From Escherichia phage vB_EcoM_NBG1, in sequence record MH243438.1: DNA of 64,000 nt; one strand, written 5' to 3'. The number at the start of each line of letters is the position of its first letter. Positions within the stretch are counted from its first letter, which is position 1. A program made the position numbers and the translations under genes. This document shows positions 6,654 to 42,728 of the stretch, one piece after another. The notes under the pieces are model-generated. The model made no database searches and was not told where the DNA came from. It was given only the letters and a program-made list of their open reading frames with translations.

Positions 6654-7669
6654 TGTGTTGCCTCAATATAAAGTTCGTTGGAATATTTGACCAGCGCTTC
6701 TCTGTCTTCGTCTGAGATATCTGGAATCGCGTCAATATATTCTTTAATGATATCTTGAAGTGATTTAATCTCGATTTCCTGGTCATCATCAGATTCAACA
6801 CTGTTATCAACTTTAGAAACCATACGAAGAGAGTGAACTACTTTTTCAAGTTCAGATTCAAACTTAGTCAACTCTGAATCAATTTCTGATACTATAACAC
6901 GTACGGCTAGATTAGTATAATCAGAATAATTAATTTTGCCTTTAAACGGATAAGTGATTCGTCGATGCCATGTTGTTTCATTAGGAATAAATTCCATACG
7001 TTCAACATCAGTGTCAAATACCCAGAATCCGCGCGGGTCGTTCTCGTCACCTGCAGTAAGGGTCCATGGTGTCCCAATATATTTGACGTTAGCAGCTTCA
7101 GAGATTGTGTGGAAGTGGCCAGACCAGACTTGTTTATAGGTCTTTAAGAAATCAGGTTCAAGCCCATGAGACTTCATTCCTTTATAGAAATAAAAGCCAT
7201 TCAGTTCCCAGTGCCCAACACAATACGCTGCGGAAGAAGTCTTGATGTGCTCTAAGATTTCACCTGTATTTTCTTCACACATCCATGGAACGATATCAAT
7301 CAGACATCCGTCAAAATCTACAGTAGTCGGATGCTCGTAAATAGTAAAGTTTTCAAATTGAGTTAACAATTCAGAAACAGTGTTAGGTGTTATTGTATTC
7401 TTAAACGCCATGTCATGGTTTCCTATCGTGACATGAACGTGAATGCCTGCTTTAGAAATCATATCAACGATTTCACGATTGAATTCCATTGTACGATGTG
7501 TTATTGCTTTACGGACGTCAAACCAATCGCCGTACTGAATCCAAGTTTTAATCCCGTGTTTCTTAGAGTATTCAATTGCTTGACGAATACCATCACGTTG
7601 AATATCTTGAACCCATGGGTCGTCTTGTTTGACTCCGATATGGAAGTCGCCTAAGTGCAAAATTTTCAT
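6650..7669 (-). CDS. 47: Recombination nuclease gp47 (SbcD/Mre11-like phosphoesterase)
   Basis: 339 aa, MKILHLGDFHIG and GNHD metallophosphatase motifs. Confidence 0.9.
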   Translation of the reverse strand: MKILHLGDFHIGVKQDDPWVQDIQRDGIRQAIEYSKKHGIKTWIQYGDWFDVRKAITHRTMEFNREIVDMISKAGIHVHVTIGNHDMAFKNTITPNTVSELLTQFENFTIYEHPTTVDFDGCLIDIVPWMCEENTGEILEHIKTSSAAYCVGHWELNGFYFYKGMKSHGLEPDFLKTYKQVWSGHFHTISEAANVKYIGTPWTLTAGDENDPRGFWVFDTDVERMEFIPNETTWHRRITYPFKGKINYSDYTNLAVRVIVSEIDSELTKFESELEKVVHSLRMVSKVDNSVESDDDQEIEIKSLQDIIKEYIDAIPDISDEDREALVKYSNELYIEATQ

Positions 7670-7713
7670 ATTATTTCCTCATTAGTTAATTCATTCTATC
7701 ATCCGTTTATAAA

Positions 7714-7739
7714 GCAAAAAAGGAACTCCGAAGAGTTCC
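7714..7739 (-). terminator. Rho-independent terminator upstream of gene 47
   Basis: Minus-strand hairpin GGAACTC-TTCG-GAGTTCC followed by TTTTTTGC. Confidence 0.55.
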
Positions 7740-7912
7740 TATCCACATAGTACACCGTACAGAGGCTCATTTGAACTTTTAAATCGAATGGGCTTGTATG
7801 TAATAGTTCCTTCGGCTTTAGCTTTATCATAAGACTCTTTAAAACGTCTCATTCTTTCTGCTTTGCCTTTACGGATTTTATCGAAATTTTCAGAAGTCGG
7901 GATGTTCGTCAT
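7739..7912 (-). CDS. small hypothetical protein (57 aa)
   Basis: MTNIPTSENFDKIRKGKAERMRRFKESYDK...; below track cutoff, hand-translated. Confidence 0.3.
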   Translation of the reverse strand: MTNIPTSENFDKIRKGKAERMRRFKESYDKAKAEGTITYKPIRFKSSNEPLYGVLCG

Positions 7913-7951
7913 GCATAAGCACCTCTCAGAAAATGCCTAAATCAATTTCTC

Positions 7952-8173
7952 TCATCGTTTCCACCATTTCTTAACTTGAAATGAATCAACCCACACGAGT
8001 TGTTTTGGGTCTGCCTTTACAATAGGCGGACAAATTTCTGTAATAGAACCGTCGTGATATTCCTTTTCAGAAATTTTAACACAAAGAGGACCTCCCAATT
8101 TAAGGGTGAACCCTGCGTTCAGCTTCAGACGTTTAAACTTTGTTTGAACTAGCGCCATTAATGATGTCCTCAA
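7952..8173 (-). CDS. hypothetical protein
   Basis: 73-aa ORF in 47-55 interval. Confidence 0.35.
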   Translation of the reverse strand: MRTSLMALVQTKFKRLKLNAGFTLKLGGPLCVKISEKEYHDGSITEICPPIVKADPKQLVWVDSFQVKKWWKR

Positions 8174-35068: not shown

Positions 35069-35541
35069 TCGGTAATAAAACGTTCAACTTCATTATTCTT
35101 GGCCTTTATCTTGTCTTTACGTTCCTGTAAACTACTTTTAACAAGATTAATAATGATGCCTACAGTACCGCCGCCAATGATGCCGCCAACAACACTTATG
35201 ATAATAGATGCTAATAAGATAGCAATAATATCAACAAAACCGAAAGAACTCACCTTAGTACTAAAAAACCATACCGACGGTACAAATATAATCCATCCTG
35301 TTATCCATTGGCACTTATTGAAAAACTTTTCAAGCTCAGCTTGAGTTGTTCGTATTACTTCATCGATAGGTTGATATCCATTAATGTATCTGTTCACGAT
35401 AATACCTGCTGGCTGGTCGATTTTAAATTCTTGGCAAATATGTTTCACTAAGTAGGATGGACATCCTGTCCAATCTACTGAATAGTATGAAATACCTTCG
35501 TTGCCATCGTCTATATTAGACCAATATGTTTTGTTAATCAT
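35050..35541 (-). CDS. membrane protein with C-terminal FITECR tail
   Basis: 163 aa, two hydrophobic helices, ends ...EVERFITECRNLR. Confidence 0.5.
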   Translation of the reverse strand: MINKTYWSNIDDGNEGISYYSVDWTGCPSYLVKHICQEFKIDQPAGIIVNRYINGYQPIDEVIRTTQAELEKFFNKCQWITGWIIFVPSVWFFSTKVSSFGFVDIIAILLASIIISVVGGIIGGGTVGIIINLVKSSLQERKDKIKAKNNEVERFITECRNLR

Positions 35542-36227
35542 TACCAGCCTTCCATAGGGAATTCCAGATAAACTTGAGCATTGACACGAATTTCATTGGT
35601 AATCTTTTTAACTCGGTCTGTATTACGAGATACACGTCCGAACCAACGCCATCCGTTACTAATTGCACGAGAACCAGTGTGCCATGTTTGCCAATCAAAC
35701 TGAAGAAGAGTACGATCTGGAGCTTCCCATTTCTCTAGTTCACCTTTTTCAATTTTTTCGAGGACTTCTTTGTGCCACTGGCGATAGATAAGTTCGCCAT
35801 CAGGAATCTGACTGAACTCTGCAGTTCCTGTTGCAAAATGAGTAGGACACACGTCAGCGTTAACAAGACCAAGAATATGTTCAGAATGGTAACGAGGGTT
35901 GTCATAGTCAGGTTGTCCTGCAGTAATAAAGTGTTGACCAACTGGAATATCAGGGCGAGGAACATCATCATGGTGGTATCCAGGAATAGCAGGATACCAA
36001 CCAGGCATCAGCATATGAACCCGAGAATCAAATACAACATGTTGATTAGTCCAATCAATTGGGAGATTGGCAATAAAGCTACGAGTGATTGAGCCACCAT
36101 TATCCCAAGCAAAACCCAAATCACAATTAAAGAACATTGGTTCATTTTTGATTCGGTCATTTTGTACGTTATGTGCAAAACTACCAACTGCACGAGCTTG
36201 ACTATTAAAAGTTTTAGAACTATTCAT
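35541..36227 (-). CDS. hypothetical protein (228 aa, His/Trp-rich)
   Basis: No recognised motif. Confidence 0.5.
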   Translation of the reverse strand: MNSSKTFNSQARAVGSFAHNVQNDRIKNEPMFFNCDLGFAWDNGGSITRSFIANLPIDWTNQHVVFDSRVHMLMPGWYPAIPGYHHDDVPRPDIPVGQHFITAGQPDYDNPRYHSEHILGLVNADVCPTHFATGTAEFSQIPDGELIYRQWHKEVLEKIEKGELEKWEAPDRTLLQFDWQTWHTGSRAISNGWRWFGRVSRNTDRVKKITNEIRVNAQVYLEFPMEGW

Positions 36228-36228
36228 A

Positions 36229-36534
36229 TTATTTTCCTCGACATTCTTTAATGAAATTTTCTAGATTGGTAGATTCAATAGCTTTTTTACGAGCTTCTGC
36301 ATGTTCTTCTTCAGACAATTTACATTTATAATTAACCCAGACATTATGGTCGAAACTAGTCGTGGCATATAATAACAATGCTCCAACGAATAGCAAAAAC
36401 GGCGATAAGAATACAAAACCAGGAACACCATCCATATCGTAAGCCTTTTGTAATACTGCAACAGAAAGAGCTGCGTAAAAAGGTGATGCAAATATTGTTA
36501 AAAGACCAATTCGGTTGGTTTCGCCTAATTTCAT
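36229..36534 (-). CDS. membrane protein with C-terminal FIKECR tail
   Basis: 101 aa, two TM helices, ends ...NLENFIKECRGK. Confidence 0.5.
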   Translation of the reverse strand: MKLGETNRIGLLTIFASPFYAALSVAVLQKAYDMDGVPGFVFLSPFLLFVGALLLYATTSFDHNVWVNYKCKLSEEEHAEARKKAIESTNLENFIKECRGK

Positions 36535-36592
36535 AATATTCTCCTCATGTTTTAATAGGACTACTATAATATATCCCTATCAGTTTGTACAC

Positions 36593-36811
36593 TTATTTTG
36601 ACATTTCTTCGATGTCACGACGATACCCATCACGAACTTCACGAAGAGCTTCAAGGCCACACATAGGCTCGATACCAGTAATGTGAACTTGATTAATCTG
36701 ATACTCTACATCTTCTAACTGAGCGAAAACATAACGACGTTCTGCTGCACAACCGGGTTTAGCTTTACCGAAACGTTTATTCAAAGTAGTCATTTTTATA
36801 TCTCCATTCAC
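36593..36811 (-). CDS. hypothetical protein
   Basis: 72-aa ORF. Confidence 0.45.
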   Translation of the reverse strand: MNGDIKMTTLNKRFGKAKPGCAAERRYVFAQLEDVEYQINQVHITGIEPMCGLEALREVRDGYRRDIEEMSK

Positions 36812-36873
36812 TCATTTGTTTTGATAGGTCTATAGTATCAACAACTACAGACCTTGTAAACTGTTTTGTGAAA

Positions 36874-37830
36874 TTATTTGAAAGGTTTTACCATATGAAA
36901 GTTTTGTTTGAAACGCTTGACGTAATCGTCGTGTCCTAAGCTTTGGTACATACTTACTACTTTGCTATAATTTTCCCAAGCGAACTCACGGAACCATCCT
37001 GATGTGATTGATGTACAGACCTTTTCAAGGGCCATCATAAAACTATCACGTGGATGGATTTTAAAGTCGTTAGGAATCTGTGAACGTTCAAGAGCTAATA
37101 CACAAGCTTCTTCATATACACCGGCTAATTTAACCATTTCTGGTAATGATTTGAACTTCTCGCGTGATGTCATAACTTCTGAGCCTTCTTTCATATAAAA
37201 CTTATAAGCAGGCTGGTCAGTTAGTGCAATGGCTTCATGAATAGTATCATGGTCATATGTATAGATGTCATCTTTAAAGAACGCACTTTTAGAAGTGTCA
37301 AGAACTGGGTGAGCATAATTCAAGGTTTCTTTCTGGCGTTTCAGCATAATTTCAGTAAGTTCATCGTTCAGTGTAACACCTTTACCACGAAGATACTGAA
37401 TATGATTCATAGTCTTTAAAAAGAATGGATTATTTTTCTTGAAACGATGAGACATCTTAATTGCAAGACATATCTCGGGAGTTGCCCAGTAAAACCCGTT
37501 CAAACGGTCTTTAGTCAAATTTTTCTTGGCGTATTTTAAAAGGTCATAAGAAGACGTGAAATCTTCAGGAGTGAGTTCACCAACTAATTCACGGACATTA
37601 GTGATTGCCGGAACAATATATGCTTCAAAATGAGTTTCGCGTCCATTATGGAAGCATTTGAAAACTTGGACGTCAGGGTTATCTTGGTGAACGTATACAC
37701 CCATCATTTGATTTTTGAATGCATTCCAAGAACATTGGTCCGCAATAAAATCCCAATCACTATTTTTGATAGCGCTAGAATCAATAAGACCATGATAGTG
37801 AAGTGCACGAGAACCAATAACTAACATCAT
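36874..37830 (-). CDS. hypothetical protein (318 aa)
   Basis: N-terminal GSRALHYHG...DWDF loosely nucleotidyltransferase-like; not convincing. Confidence 0.5.
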   Translation of the reverse strand: MMLVIGSRALHYHGLIDSSAIKNSDWDFIADQCSWNAFKNQMMGVYVHQDNPDVQVFKCFHNGRETHFEAYIVPAITNVRELVGELTPEDFTSSYDLLKYAKKNLTKDRLNGFYWATPEICLAIKMSHRFKKNNPFFLKTMNHIQYLRGKGVTLNDELTEIMLKRQKETLNYAHPVLDTSKSAFFKDDIYTYDHDTIHEAIALTDQPAYKFYMKEGSEVMTSREKFKSLPEMVKLAGVYEEACVLALERSQIPNDFKIHPRDSFMMALEKVCTSITSGWFREFAWENYSKVVSMYQSLGHDDYVKRFKQNFHMVKPFK

Positions 37831-37855
37831 AATAATTTCCTCGAATTTAGATTAC

Positions 37856-38107
37856 TTAAATTTCACGACATGCGATATTATATTCATCCCAGAGGTCATC
37901 ATGTGAAGCCTCTACCAATGGAACGATTGTACCGTTTATGTCTTCATTATAAGGGCAAATTGTACAGTGCGCATCTTCGAATCGGATGCCTTTGTGTTCA
38001 GATTTTTTATAACGCATATCGAATATCTTTGCAAACTTTTCACGAGTAATAGTTTTAGCAACCACTTTGGTTCCGATACTTTCGTAATAAATCATTGTGG
38101 ACTCCAT
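37856..38107 (-). CDS. hypothetical protein
   Basis: 83-aa ORF. Confidence 0.45.
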   Translation of the reverse strand: MESTMIYYESIGTKVVAKTITREKFAKIFDMRYKKSEHKGIRFEDAHCTICPYNEDINGTIVPLVEASHDDLWDEYNIACREI

Positions 38108-38157
38108 TTGTTTTGATAGGACTACTATAACATAGCCCTATCTTGTTGTAAACTGTT

Positions 38158-38355
38158 TTAGCAAGAATAACTAGATGATACCCAGCCTTGAACAGTGATA
38201 CTATTGTGGGATAATGAGATCGCGTCCTGGAGATTCAGACCTGCGTTATCTTCAATCCATAATGTAACTTCTTCGCGTTCTTCTGTTGCAATTTGGAACA
38301 GGTTTTCCAGAGCAGCTACTGCCGTACGTACAGCACAATCTAATTCACGAGACAT
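38158..38355 (-). CDS. small protein, GxWVSSSxxC family member A
   Basis: 65 aa ending QGWVSSSYSC. Confidence 0.5.
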   Translation of the reverse strand: MSRELDCAVRTAVAALENLFQIATEEREEVTLWIEDNAGLNLQDAISLSHNSITVQGWVSSSYSC

Positions 38356-38364
38356 ATTGTTTCC

Positions 38365-38637
38365 TTAGCAAGTGTGAGAAGATGCGACCCAACCACCAGT
38401 TTCGAGGCTCAGGTTGTAGTCGTATTGGTAAACGTCAGCCCATTCAGCATAGCCGTTTTTTGTACAACGTTCAAGATCGGCTTTAAGATGTCCGGGTGAA
38501 TGATAGGTTCCACCCATACCATAAGCTGGATACAAGTCGAATGTTGTGTTTTGTTTATCAGCAATTTCTTTGGCAGCCTCAATAGCTGCATAGATTTTTG
38601 CTACAGCTTCAGCCAGTTCGGTTTGTTCTTTAGACAT
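38365..38637 (-). CDS. small protein, GxWVSSSxxC family member B
   Basis: 90 aa ending GGWVASSHTC. Confidence 0.5.
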   Translation of the reverse strand: MSKEQTELAEAVAKIYAAIEAAKEIADKQNTTFDLYPAYGMGGTYHSPGHLKADLERCTKNGYAEWADVYQYDYNLSLETGGWVASSHTC

Positions 38638-38646
38638 AATGATTCC

Positions 38647-38952
38647 TTAGCACAACGCAGAAGACGAAACCCAAGCACCTTCAGTAATAACGTAACCGTT
38701 ACCTTCACGCTTAACATCGCCACCATTATTTTCAATTTCATCTTTCATCCACTGGGATACGATTTCACCCTTAGGATAATAAGTACGACCACTACCATAA
38801 TCACCTACAGAAAATGATACAGCATATTGGTCTGCGATCTTTGTTGCTTCTTCTTCGATACGTTCAGCTTGATTCAGAAGTTTATAAATTGCATCTGAAG
38901 CGGATTTGGCATCATTAAACTCTGGTACTTTAATTTCAATAATCTTACTCAT
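38647..38952 (-). CDS. small protein, GxWVSSSxxC family member C
   Basis: 101 aa ending GAWVSSSALC. Confidence 0.5.
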   Translation of the reverse strand: MSKIIEIKVPEFNDAKSASDAIYKLLNQAERIEEEATKIADQYAVSFSVGDYGSGRTYYPKGEIVSQWMKDEIENNGGDVKREGNGYVITEGAWVSSSALC

Positions 38953-39308
38953 TTTCTACATTCCTTAATAAAGTTTTCGATTGTTTCATTTTCACGTTTA
39001 GCTAGGAGTTCATTATAACTAATCATTTGAGAAGCGTAAACCTTTTTATTTTTCTTGTTATGGTTTATAAAATCGTAGTAAAAATAGACCACAGTACAAA
39101 ATGATGCGATGGATGCAAAGGCTTGGGTATACCGTAAGTCCTGCCATTGGTCTGTGAATCCACCGGTATTCCCTATAAATCCTAACACAACTCCGTCAAT
39201 AAGAAATCCAACTAATCCAAAGGCAAATCCCATGCCAATACTCATAATAAAAATTAGAATGTTCTCGCCGAGAGAAGGCCGAACAGTTAAGAGTTTAGGT
39301 TTTTGCAT
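38949..39308 (-). CDS. membrane protein with C-terminal FIKECR tail
   Basis: 119 aa, ends ...ETIENFIKECRK. Confidence 0.5.
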   Translation of the reverse strand: MQKPKLLTVRPSLGENILIFIMSIGMGFAFGLVGFLIDGVVLGFIGNTGGFTDQWQDLRYTQAFASIASFCTVVYFYYDFINHNKKNKKVYASQMISYNELLAKRENETIENFIKECRK

Positions 39309-39712
39309 CTTATTTCCTTAACGAATTCCATAGCTTCTTCGTATTCGTACTTTTTAACAGCTTCGTCATACTGAGCTTGGGCTTTTGCGCACTGAACTTT
39401 CCATTCGCGTACTCGAGCTCTATAATGACGTCCTTGGTACCAATATCCCACCCAGTTAATAGGCATTAATAAAAATGGCACAATAAACGACCCGGCTATA
39501 ATAAGTAAAAACACTGCATCAGACGATATAACTTCACTAGAATCTAAAACAGCTCCTATAATCATAAAGATTAAAAATGCTAAAGCTAAAATAGGGCCAA
39601 ATAGTACTTCGTTTGGGATTAATTTACGTTTGTATTCGTATGCCCAGGGCTTAATTGGTTGATAAAGGGTTGGCTTTGACATATTCTCTACATTCCATAA
39701 TAAATTGCTCAA
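39287..39712 (-). CDS. membrane protein with FVKEIRC tail variant
   Basis: 141 aa (or 131 from MSKPTLY), ends ...EEAMEFVKEIRCKNLNS. Confidence 0.5.
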   Translation of the reverse strand: MSNLLWNVENMSKPTLYQPIKPWAYEYKRKLIPNEVLFGPILALAFLIFMIIGAVLDSSEVISSDAVFLLIIAGSFIVPFLLMPINWVGYWYQGRHYRARVREWKVQCAKAQAQYDEAVKKYEYEEAMEFVKEIRCKNLNS

Positions 39713-40253
39713 GGATTAAATTGTTAGTGAAATTAGGACTAACAACCATAGTTTCATAAAGCGCATCAATAGCACTTAAAGCATCAACTCTCTTAAGCAA
39801 AGGCTTGCCTTCATACATAGTTTCAGAATCGACGATTAAAGTGAAGTAGTATTTTTTATTATTGACCAGAACTTCTGTATCAATATAAAACATGTTAGAC
39901 CTCAGAAGCTTATCTCTAAAACCATAATAATCTTTAGAGCGTTCGCTGATATATTCCCATTCAGTGTTTAAACAACAAACAGACCATGTAGGAGCAACGA
40001 AATCGGTGAATCTAATATCATGGTCTGCAACTAGTTTAGCAATAGCTCCGATATCATGAATCATAATACCTGGGGTTAATAAAGATTTTCTGCTATGGCT
40101 AGCCGTTTTCTCAGTAGTCTCATAAGAAGACGACCAGTACCATTTACGTCCAGTTGCAACATATCGTAATGAATCAACTAAAGACGTAGGTGGATTTACC
40201 TTATCTCGGAACTCTTCGAACATTGAGTCAATATCATTATTTTGGTTTCGCAT
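39651..40253 (-). CDS. hypothetical protein with FIMECR near C-terminus
   Basis: Start reassigned to MRNQNNDIDSMFEEF (AAGGAG upstream); ends ...LEQFIMECREYVKANPLSTN. Confidence 0.5.
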   Translation of the reverse strand: MRNQNNDIDSMFEEFRDKVNPPTSLVDSLRYVATGRKWYWSSSYETTEKTASHSRKSLLTPGIMIHDIGAIAKLVADHDIRFTDFVAPTWSVCCLNTEWEYISERSKDYYGFRDKLLRSNMFYIDTEVLVNNKKYYFTLIVDSETMYEGKPLLKRVDALSAIDALYETMVVSPNFTNNLILEQFIMECREYVKANPLSTN

Positions 40254-42571: not shown

Positions 42572-42648
42572 TGGCCGAGACAGAAGGATTCTAACCTTCA
42601 ACCTACGGATTAGAATTCCGTTGCTCTATACAATTGAGCTATGCCTCG
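42572..42648 (-). tRNA. tRNA-Arg (anticodon UCU)
   Basis: 77-nt cloverleaf folded by hand with 7-bp acceptor stem, GCTC/GAGC D-stem, anticodon loop AUUCUAA, T-arm GAAGG-TTAGAAT-CCTTC, encoded CCA. Confidence 0.7.
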
Positions 42649-42654
42649 AATATA

Positions 42655-42728
42655 TGACCCAGACCAGATTCGAACTGGTAACCTTTCCCTTATGAGGGGA
42701 CTGCTGCTAACCATTGAGCTACAGGGCC
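42655..42728 (-). tRNA. tRNA with CAU anticodon (Met or Ile2 type)
   Basis: 74 nt, anticodon loop CUCAUAA, T-arm ACCAG-TTCGAAT-CTGGT; one acceptor mismatch and unclear D-stem in my reading. Confidence 0.6.

Follow-up and report, generated by a model that had tools for sequence, protein, structure and literature searches.

The closest described counterparts of the genes reported here are MenA1-MenT1 of Mycobacterium tuberculosis and AbiEi-AbiEii, in which a small gene lies just upstream of a gene for a Pol-beta nucleotidyltransferase with a GS...DxD signature. Toxins of the MenT group transfer nucleotides to the acceptor end of tRNA (PMC10435456), and MenA1, a very short protein of 68 aa encoded upstream of MenT1, binds across the active-site face of the toxin and induces auto-phosphorylation of its active-site Thr (PMC10435456; PMC11375011). 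The subject of this work is an array of three small genes in a 64,000-nucleotide stretch of the genome of Escherichia phage vB_EcoM_NBG1 (MH243438.1), referred to below as the window, together with the gene downstream of them, which encodes a predicted Pol-beta-type nucleotidyltransferase of 318 aa. The small proteins share the C-terminal end W-x-x-S-S-x-x-C, and their family and the enzyme form a near-obligate same-strand gene pair. These findings point to a previously undescribed module of virulent phages, consisting of an enzyme and its small partners.

The phage module resembles MenA1-MenT1 and AbiEi-AbiEii in gene order and enzyme signature, and MenA1 in the shortness of the partner. However, the phage enzyme has no detectable sequence relation to DUF1814 and represents a separate sequence family, while its partners have a fold different from that of MenA1, no known relative and a unique invariant end. 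In addition, 1-5 paralogous partners accompany each phage enzyme, and the module, known here from sequence and structure models, resides in virulent phages. A looser likeness exists to the type VII toxin-antitoxin system HepT-MntA, also composed of a Pol-beta nucleotidyltransferase and a small cognate protein, in which the nucleotidyltransferase covalently adenylylates a conserved hydroxyl residue of its partner. The phage small proteins, unlike HepT, contain neither a HEPN domain nor an Rx4-6H motif; the 318-aa phage enzyme carries a large helical domain, and the candidate target would be a Ser or Cys of the C-terminal motif instead of a Tyr.

A tandem array of small proteins with a common C-terminal end

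The original prediction described a tandem array of three small genes with a common C-terminal tail encoded by differing codons, and inspection of the open reading frames (ORFs) and their codons bore this out. The genes are located as follows.

38647..38952, minus strand: member A, 101 aa, orthologue of RB69ORF139c; ends in TEGAWVSSSALC and stop, tail GAWVSSSALC; predicted long N-terminal helix, DYGSGRTYYP loop and small beta-sheet before the tail
38365..38637, minus strand: member B, 90 aa, YGMGGTY type; ends in ETGGWVASSHTC and stop, tail GGWVASSHTC
38158..38355, minus strand: member C, 65 aa, orthologue of RB69ORF136c; ends in TVQGWVSSSYSC and stop, tail QGWVSSSYSC
38647..38673 (A), 38365-38391 (B) and 38158-38184 (C), minus strand: codons of the W-x-x-S-S-x-x-C tails with the stop

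The conserved part of the tail is encoded by gct tgg gtt tcg tct tct in member A, ggt tgg gtc gca tct tct in member B and ggc tgg gta tca tct agt in member C. Of the 544 ORFs in the window that are >=30 aa long, these three are the only ones ending in W..S[ST]..C, and no more than 12 have a terminal Cys, which excludes chance as the source of the shared end.

The three genes are also paralogues, as had been proposed. Members A and B are homologous (pairwise BLASTP E=1e-4), both match phrog_899 (1e-22 and 3.5e-19, respectively), and they have in common the helix ...A..IAD....F and the loop YG[SM]G[RG]TY[YH]. Member C (phrog_4882) is a divergent short paralogue that lacks the YGxGxTY loop; its score against a family hidden Markov model built without it was borderline (E=0.027, third-best window ORF), and it is counted as a member because of its tail, its N-terminal helix and its place within the array. 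The family is characterized by a length of 60-175 aa, an N-terminal helix ...A..[IF]A[DN]....F, in most cases YG[SM]G[GR]TY, a C-terminal W-x-x-S-S-(x0-2)-C and a place upstream of a DUF7275 gene; all these features are present in A and B, with the YG loop missing from C. In the RB69 reference genome, the orthologue of member A (P0002, RB69ORF139c) is only 71 aa long and ends in QWYEK, without the Cys tail. This truncation is either a strain frameshift or a sequencing error, and it suggests that the member A paralogue is dispensable in the laboratory.

A shared protein end could, in principle, be the by-product of a conserved DNA junction, TGC-TAA-GGAA, combining a stop codon with a Shine-Dalgarno sequence for re-initiation. 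Members A and B both carry TGCTAAGGAA followed by ATG, and their junctions form a 48-nt repeat of 75% identity. However, GGAA is absent from the junction of member C, and among 164 distinct homologues, 111 encode the Cys by TGC and 53 by TGT, the stops TAA, TGA and TAG are all used, the hexamers 3' of the stop are heterogeneous, and each of the two invariant Ser positions shows the full set of six Ser codons, those of the TCN box as well as those of the AGY box. On the basis of this codon usage the junction artefact was rejected, and we consider it almost certainly wrong. The 48-nt repeat is a remnant of tandem duplication and hence does not account for the motif. Selection acts on the tail as a peptide, and the variety of Cys, Ser and stop codons in the homologues confirms the purifying selection on the peptide that had been proposed from the window genes.

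Distribution and variation of the small-protein family

A word-indexed search yielded 57 small-protein relatives, and an exhaustive profile search extended the family to 672 clusters at 50% identity (E <=1e-3). Among the 150 matches listed, protein length ranges from 68 to 175 aa, and in nearly all cases the match extends to the final residue. The homologues retain the motif: of 137 new representatives at 50% identity, 125 end in W..SS..C and 130 in Cys. In the 125 representatives, the Trp, both Ser and the Cys are invariant, and the Ser pair is preceded by S, A or P; the residue before the tail Trp is usually G (137 representatives). The position of the terminal Cys is not absolute. A Ser stands three residues before it in 125 of the 137 representatives, a sub-group ends in W-x-x-S-S-C or SSxC, and a few members have one extra residue after the Cys, so that the spacing between the Ser pair and the Cys varies from 0 to 2 residues across the family.

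The family is strongly acidic, with a median pI of 4.46 and a median net charge of -9, and 90% of its members have a pI <5. The bodies of the proteins are variable and often repetitive, in contrast to the constant tail, and members contain on average ~0.6 other Cys residues. The smallest members (~60 aa) consist of a helix, the YGMGGTY motif, a short loop and W..SS..C. Member B is of the YGMGGTY type, the most widespread one, which occurs in phages of Acinetobacter, Ralstonia and Pseudomonas (Otagovirus) and in ~150-kb coliphages. In some phages (loci L063, positions 6974-8126; L055/L057; L106; L113), four or five tandem members directly precede the nucleotidyltransferase gene; these are 52-160 aa long and have tails such as WFASSQSC, WHSSRC, WNYSSC and WNSSSYDC. 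One member, P0054, contains WESSSEG twice before its final WVSSSSQC.

The family is found in phages only. A pattern-based scan of 185,579 bacterial and archaeal species genomes, which distant copies could escape, gave no match to the small proteins and placed the enzyme on 5 contigs of metagenome-assembled genomes (MAGs), 4 of them with an upstream partner. Bacterial homologues in the form of chromosomal toxin-antitoxin or defence-island copies were accordingly rejected, none existing for the small family and the five enzyme-bearing MAG contigs being phage-like. The small proteins have no match in Pfam, NCBIfam or PADLOC. No fusion to the enzyme or to another domain was found, the top 150 representatives all being <=175 aa with the match ending C-terminally; long enzyme ORFs considered as fusions proved to be start-codon extension artefacts or to carry an unrelated N-terminal extension. 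In the literature library searched, there was no paper naming DUF7275, DUF7277, the PHROG identifiers or the RB69 ORF names.

The downstream gene encodes a predicted nucleotidyltransferase

The gene paired with the small-protein family is located downstream of the array.

36874..37830, minus strand: 318-aa DUF7277/DUF7275 protein, a predicted active Pol-beta-type nucleotidyltransferase with a MenT/AbiEii-like fold

Pfam assigns only DUF7277 and DUF7275 to this protein. Its AlphaFold2 model (predicted local distance difference test, pLDDT, of 90) has as its nearest structural neighbours MenT1 (8an4; 7.7), TglT/MenT3 (6j7n; 6.8), ANT(2'') (6.6) and MenT4 (6.1), followed by lincosamide and other nucleotidyltransferases. 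The protein thus appears to combine a Pol-beta fold, with the hG[GS]...DxD...carboxylate core, and a C-terminal helical domain. The residues of this signature, G6-S7, D25-x-D27 and E69, are invariant in the enzyme alignment, as are K125, H128, R129, H174, D193-H-D195 and H198 of the helical domain, and all of them are kept in ~97 distinct long-type homologues. Given this invariance of the catalytic residues, the 318-aa protein is, as judged from alignment and model, very probably an active enzyme. No match to it was obtained with the DUF1814/AbiEii profile, with MenT sequences in a profile search of the PDB sequences, or in PADLOC; for lack of a sequence link to DUF1814, we call it MenT/AbiEii-like in fold and not a member of that family.

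Homologues of the enzyme are encoded by 733 deposited phage genomes, a few of which carry the annotation putative nucleotidyltransferase, the copies of the module being otherwise labelled hypothetical; their hosts include Escherichia, Klebsiella, Acinetobacter, Aeromonas and Pseudomonas. No enzyme Cys shows a clean correlation with the terminal Cys of the partners. C243 was rejected as a matching residue, as it is often Y, M or L where partners are present, and C272 was rejected as it occurs in some partner-less enzymes.

A short type of the enzyme, of 248-263 aa and <=33% identity, is encoded by KVP40, Gordonia phage ClubL, Streptomyces phage Wakanda and Vibrio phage K406. Beside it stands a small protein of ~100 aa with the pattern ...GGGEG..EYCY..L..DG.Y.K.E.SYYSY.G.D...V.P....I..Y (L151, positions 2360-2656, KVP40.0036; L153, 3620-3985; L149, 3594-3893; L148, 3600-3890), which may be an alternative partner family.

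Linkage of the small proteins and the nucleotidyltransferase

In 62 of the 64 loci retrieved via the small proteins, a DUF7275 homologue is encoded 0.2-2 kb downstream on the same strand; both exceptions are contigs that end before the position of the enzyme. No other neighbour is conserved across these loci. The reciprocal analysis, performed on 80 loci retrieved with the 318-aa protein alone as the query, identified W..S[ST]..C ORFs upstream and on the same strand in 71 loci, and none downstream or on the opposite strand among ~4,800 ORFs. In four of the nine misses the W-x-x-S-S-C variant lies directly upstream, and with a regular expression allowing this variant, 75 of the 80 enzyme loci have 1-5 upstream members. 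Where the locus is minimal, the two genes directly adjoin each other (L138, L147 and L158, the first two on GC-rich contigs). The window array also has the MenA1-type position, with short-protein genes upstream of the nucleotidyltransferase gene and on the same strand, although an 83-aa ORF and a promoter-like cassette intervene. In T4, e.2 is joined directly to e.3, and both the small genes and the enzyme are absent from the region; the window block 35541-38952 is therefore an insertion relative to T4.

It is conceivable that the small proteins are independent of the enzyme, acting as nucleic-acid mimics, small-molecule sponges or inhibitors of host factors or defence, and merely share its neighbourhood. 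They are small, acidic, fast-evolving and tandemly duplicated products of early/middle genes in a hyperplastic region, as is typical of anti-defence genes, and in the window the array has an apparent promoter of its own and an annotated terminator. Yet the linkage outlasts all other synteny, with fixed order and strand and often abutting genes. It spans genera of the Straboviridae, Otagovirus, ~150-kb coliphages, ~360-kb jumbo contigs, GC-rich contigs and MAG contigs, in which the pair is kept despite different other neighbours. In view of this, independence of the two seems fairly improbable.

Genes for tRNAs or for RNA repair are found within a few kb of the module in several phages. In the window, two tRNA genes are located 3.6 kb away (42572-42728); Rnl1 and PNK are encoded near the module in L003 (1456-4249), and a tRNA cluster near the nucleotidyltransferase gene in ClubL (L148, 4847-6112). 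RNA ligase 2 is found near it in DSS3_VP1 (L150, 265-1810), and RNA ligase 2 plus phosphoesterase occur among the neighbour sets. This proximity is a weak hint that the ultimate substrate of the enzyme is RNA.

Predicted fold of the small proteins

The small proteins were modelled with AlphaFold2 using a 27-sequence alignment (pLDDT 92). In the model, a long helix spans residues 15-43 and has the conserved A-D at its end. It is followed by a short strand, by the YGSGRTYY loop with a strand, by a short helix and by three strands, of which the last comprises A-W-V-S and would lead into a single turn, S-S-A-L, and the terminal Cys. In a Foldseek comparison with BFVD, only uncharacterized members of the same family were matched. 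The ubiquitin-like and sulfur-carrier proteins (ThiS/MoaD) are recognized by a beta-grasp fold and a C-terminal Gly-Gly, and the small proteins have neither.

This model bears on two further explanations of the conserved end. One is that it serves as a structural, metal-binding or oligomerization element of a self-contained mini-protein, with no role at an active site. The tail is confidently modelled as a beta-strand and turn beside the other conserved motif, and its Trp is invariant, as expected of a core residue. On the other hand, such a role leaves the near-obligate pairing with the enzyme unexplained, the low number of other Cys residues provides no intramolecular metal site, and the enzyme has no clean matching Cys. 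We regard a purely structural end as improbable.

The other is that the proteins are precursors similar to those of ribosomally synthesized and post-translationally modified peptides (RiPPs), whose C-terminal S-x-x-C would form a ring of the aminovinyl-cysteine type or whose Cys would be otherwise processed. In epidermin and cypemycin, a C-terminal S/C-x-x-C forms aminovinyl-cysteine, the ring-forming sequence of epidermin-type peptides being S-x-x-C. The phage loci resemble tandem RiPP precursors in that several small ORFs with one motif adjoin one enzyme gene, and in the majority of members a Ser precedes the terminal Cys by three positions. Nevertheless, the whole chain of 60-100 aa, tail included, is predicted to form one compact domain and not a leader with a core, and the spacing is broken by members with W-x-x-S-S-C, SSxC or a residue after the Cys. 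Moreover, the neighbours include no dehydratase or flavin (LanD-type) decarboxylase family according to Pfam and NCBIfam, and the adjacent enzyme is a nucleotidyltransferase. An origin as RiPP-like precursors is thus very improbable.

Possible function of the small proteins

The small proteins are most likely cognate partners of the enzyme, and two roles connected with it were weighed. In the first, the small proteins would be acceptor substrates or carriers, and the enzyme would nucleotidylylate or phosphorylate their Ser-Ser (or Cys), thereby switching the activity of the variable body. Hydroxyl groups, on proteins as well, are the targets of Pol-beta nucleotidyltransferases (GlnE, MntA), and the catalytic centre of the phage enzyme is intact. 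The W, S, S and C residues are chemically reactive and invariant across the 672 clusters, a constant tail is joined to variable and often repetitive acidic bodies, and 1-5 paralogues accompany a single enzyme, in the way that one enzyme serves tandem RiPP precursors. Small acidic carriers with a cognate enzyme are exemplified by CitD (the acyl carrier protein of citrate lyase, served by CitX) and LysW (with the C-terminal EDWGE). The phage proteins share with them a size of 50-100 aa, acidity, a conserved reactive residue or tail and a cognate enzyme encoded nearby, but they have no sequence or fold similarity to these carriers and no metabolic gene context. Furthermore, the tail is predicted to be packed, the distance from the Ser pair to the Cys varies by 0-2 residues, in some members a further residue follows the Cys, and the proteins structurally closest to the enzyme have tRNA 3' ends, not proteins, as their targets (PMC10435456). 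Overall, covalent modification of the partner is rather doubtful. A specific form of it, a phage protein-modification system in which the enzyme attaches nucleotides to, or primes an oligonucleotide on, the Ser-Ser/Cys end of acidic mini-proteins, so that the conjugates act on host translation or immunity, appears unlikely.

In the second role, which is our first choice over covalent modification but one held only tentatively and with less than even confidence, the small proteins would act, as cognate partners of the enzyme, as its inhibitors or regulators, by analogy with the action of MenA1 on MenT1. The multi-copy arrays and the invariant reactive residues favour modification, whereas the structural relatives of the enzyme favour regulation. 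The proposal of cognate partners is based on the near-obligate upstream position, the acidity of the partners, the invariant reactive cluster and the intact catalytic centre. From genomic context and fold, on which all functional statements about the module rest, we infer that the two proteins interact physically, that the tail has a function at the active site, that the result is regulatory and that the enzyme has RNA or tRNA as its substrate.

The acidic small proteins might bind the presumably electropositive substrate face of the enzyme, as their acidity would complement a nucleic-acid-binding cleft, and the tail, a Trp-Ser-Ser-Cys surface rich in hydroxyl, thiol and carboxylate groups, might be presented to the catalytic Mg-nucleotide site. 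There it could block the enzyme, retune it or induce its auto-modification. The phage would thereby govern the timing and the targets of the enzyme in the infected cell, and the arrays of 1-5 diverged paralogues would represent alternative versions of the partner.

Several observations speak against regulation by cognate partners. The tail is modelled with high confidence (pLDDT ~91 for residues 91-100) as packed in the compact fold beside the other conserved motif, and not as a free arm. None of the three small proteins shows sequence or fold similarity to MenA1, and no solved structure, that of MenA1 included, has a similar fold. Several antitoxin-like paralogues per enzyme are unusual for toxin-antitoxin pairs, and the invariant Ser-Ser and Cys suggest chemistry at this site and not simple steric blocking. 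A few enzyme genes have no partner upstream (L090, L108, L112 and L134), and the short-type homologues lack the Cys-tailed family and have a different small neighbour. Finally, a promoter-like cassette, an annotated terminator and the 83-aa ORF separate the array from the enzyme gene in the window.

The module is widespread (672 clusters of small proteins; enzymes in 733 phage genomes) and occurs in many T4-like phages that are therapeutic candidates. If the enzyme is indeed a MenT-like tRNA nucleotidyltransferase, lytic phages would possess a version of their own of an enzyme otherwise used by bacteria as a toxin or in abortive infection, with dedicated protein partners. This would be relevant to host shut-off, to the tRNA-centred arms race of phages with bacteria and to the regulation of nucleotidyltransferases. 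The invariant Trp, Ser-Ser and terminal Cys make the specific hypothesis directly testable.

Genetic surroundings of the array

The region is 96-98% identical to genomes of Mosigvirus (T4-type coliphages similar to RB69 and JS09) and corresponds to the e.2-e.8 block by the phage tRNA genes. All genes of the array region lie on the minus strand. The following features surround the array.

39287..39712, minus strand: e.4, upstream of the array; ends in EFVKEIRCKNLNS
38949..39308, minus strand: e.3, upstream of the array; ends in ENFIKECRK
39012..39040, minus strand: promoter-like site TTTACG-17-TATAAT inside e.3, upstream of the array (consensus match only)
38124..38159, minus strand: promoter-like cassette AAAACAGTTTACAA ... 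TATAGT within a ~55-nt repeat (38105-38159), between member C and the 83-aa ORF/enzyme
37856..38107, minus strand: 83-aa ORF (phrog_3723), between the array and the nucleotidyltransferase gene
36813-36867, minus strand: near-identical copy of the cassette, downstream of the nucleotidyltransferase gene
35541-36227, minus strand: 228-aa ORF, downstream of the nucleotidyltransferase gene

The original prediction placed the array directly downstream of two membrane proteins with FIKECR tails, and e.3 and e.4 are indeed located there. The link drawn between these proteins and the array did not hold, since homologues of e.3 and e.4 border the array in Mosigvirus and Dhakavirus relatives alone and are absent from most loci bearing the family; it was therefore rejected. 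Tails similar to F-[IV]-K-E-[CI]-R occur on several unrelated neighbours: ENFIKECRK in e.3, ENFIKECRGK in the 101-aa ORF at 36229, FVKEIRCK... in e.4, FIMECREY... in e.5 and NIACREI in the 83-aa ORF (sites 38949-38975, 36229-36262, 39287-39325, 39651-39720 and 37856-37880). The codons of the FIKECR tails contain the Shine-Dalgarno sequence (AAG GAA ... in e.3 and e.4) and the start codon of the next gene, which in e.3 and e.4 overlaps them (ATGA overlap). The tail is likewise conserved as a peptide in e.3-e.5 of T4 and in other phages (L090, L108), and it is either a coupling cassette or a protein motif.

The 83-aa ORF is found only in loci of Mosigvirus, Dhakavirus and some Klebsiella phages; it is lineage-specific and probably does not belong to the core of the module. 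The 228-aa ORF shows 73-93% identity from coliphages to Aeromonas phages, far above its neighbours; it has no match in Pfam or NCBIfam and is absent from the syntenic region of T4. A search of the window against Rfam identified only two tRNAs, at 42.6 kb.

In phage SA79RD, a middle promoter is annotated at the place equivalent to the promoter-like site in e.3, and a terminator at the site equivalent to the cassette downstream of member C. This cassette and its copy downstream of the nucleotidyltransferase gene (repeat families D1 and D10) both contain AAAACAGTTTACAA ... TAGTCCTATCAAAACAAATG, and partial copies are present at 36544 and 37758. The cassettes look like repeated T4-type early promoter modules flanking inserted genes.

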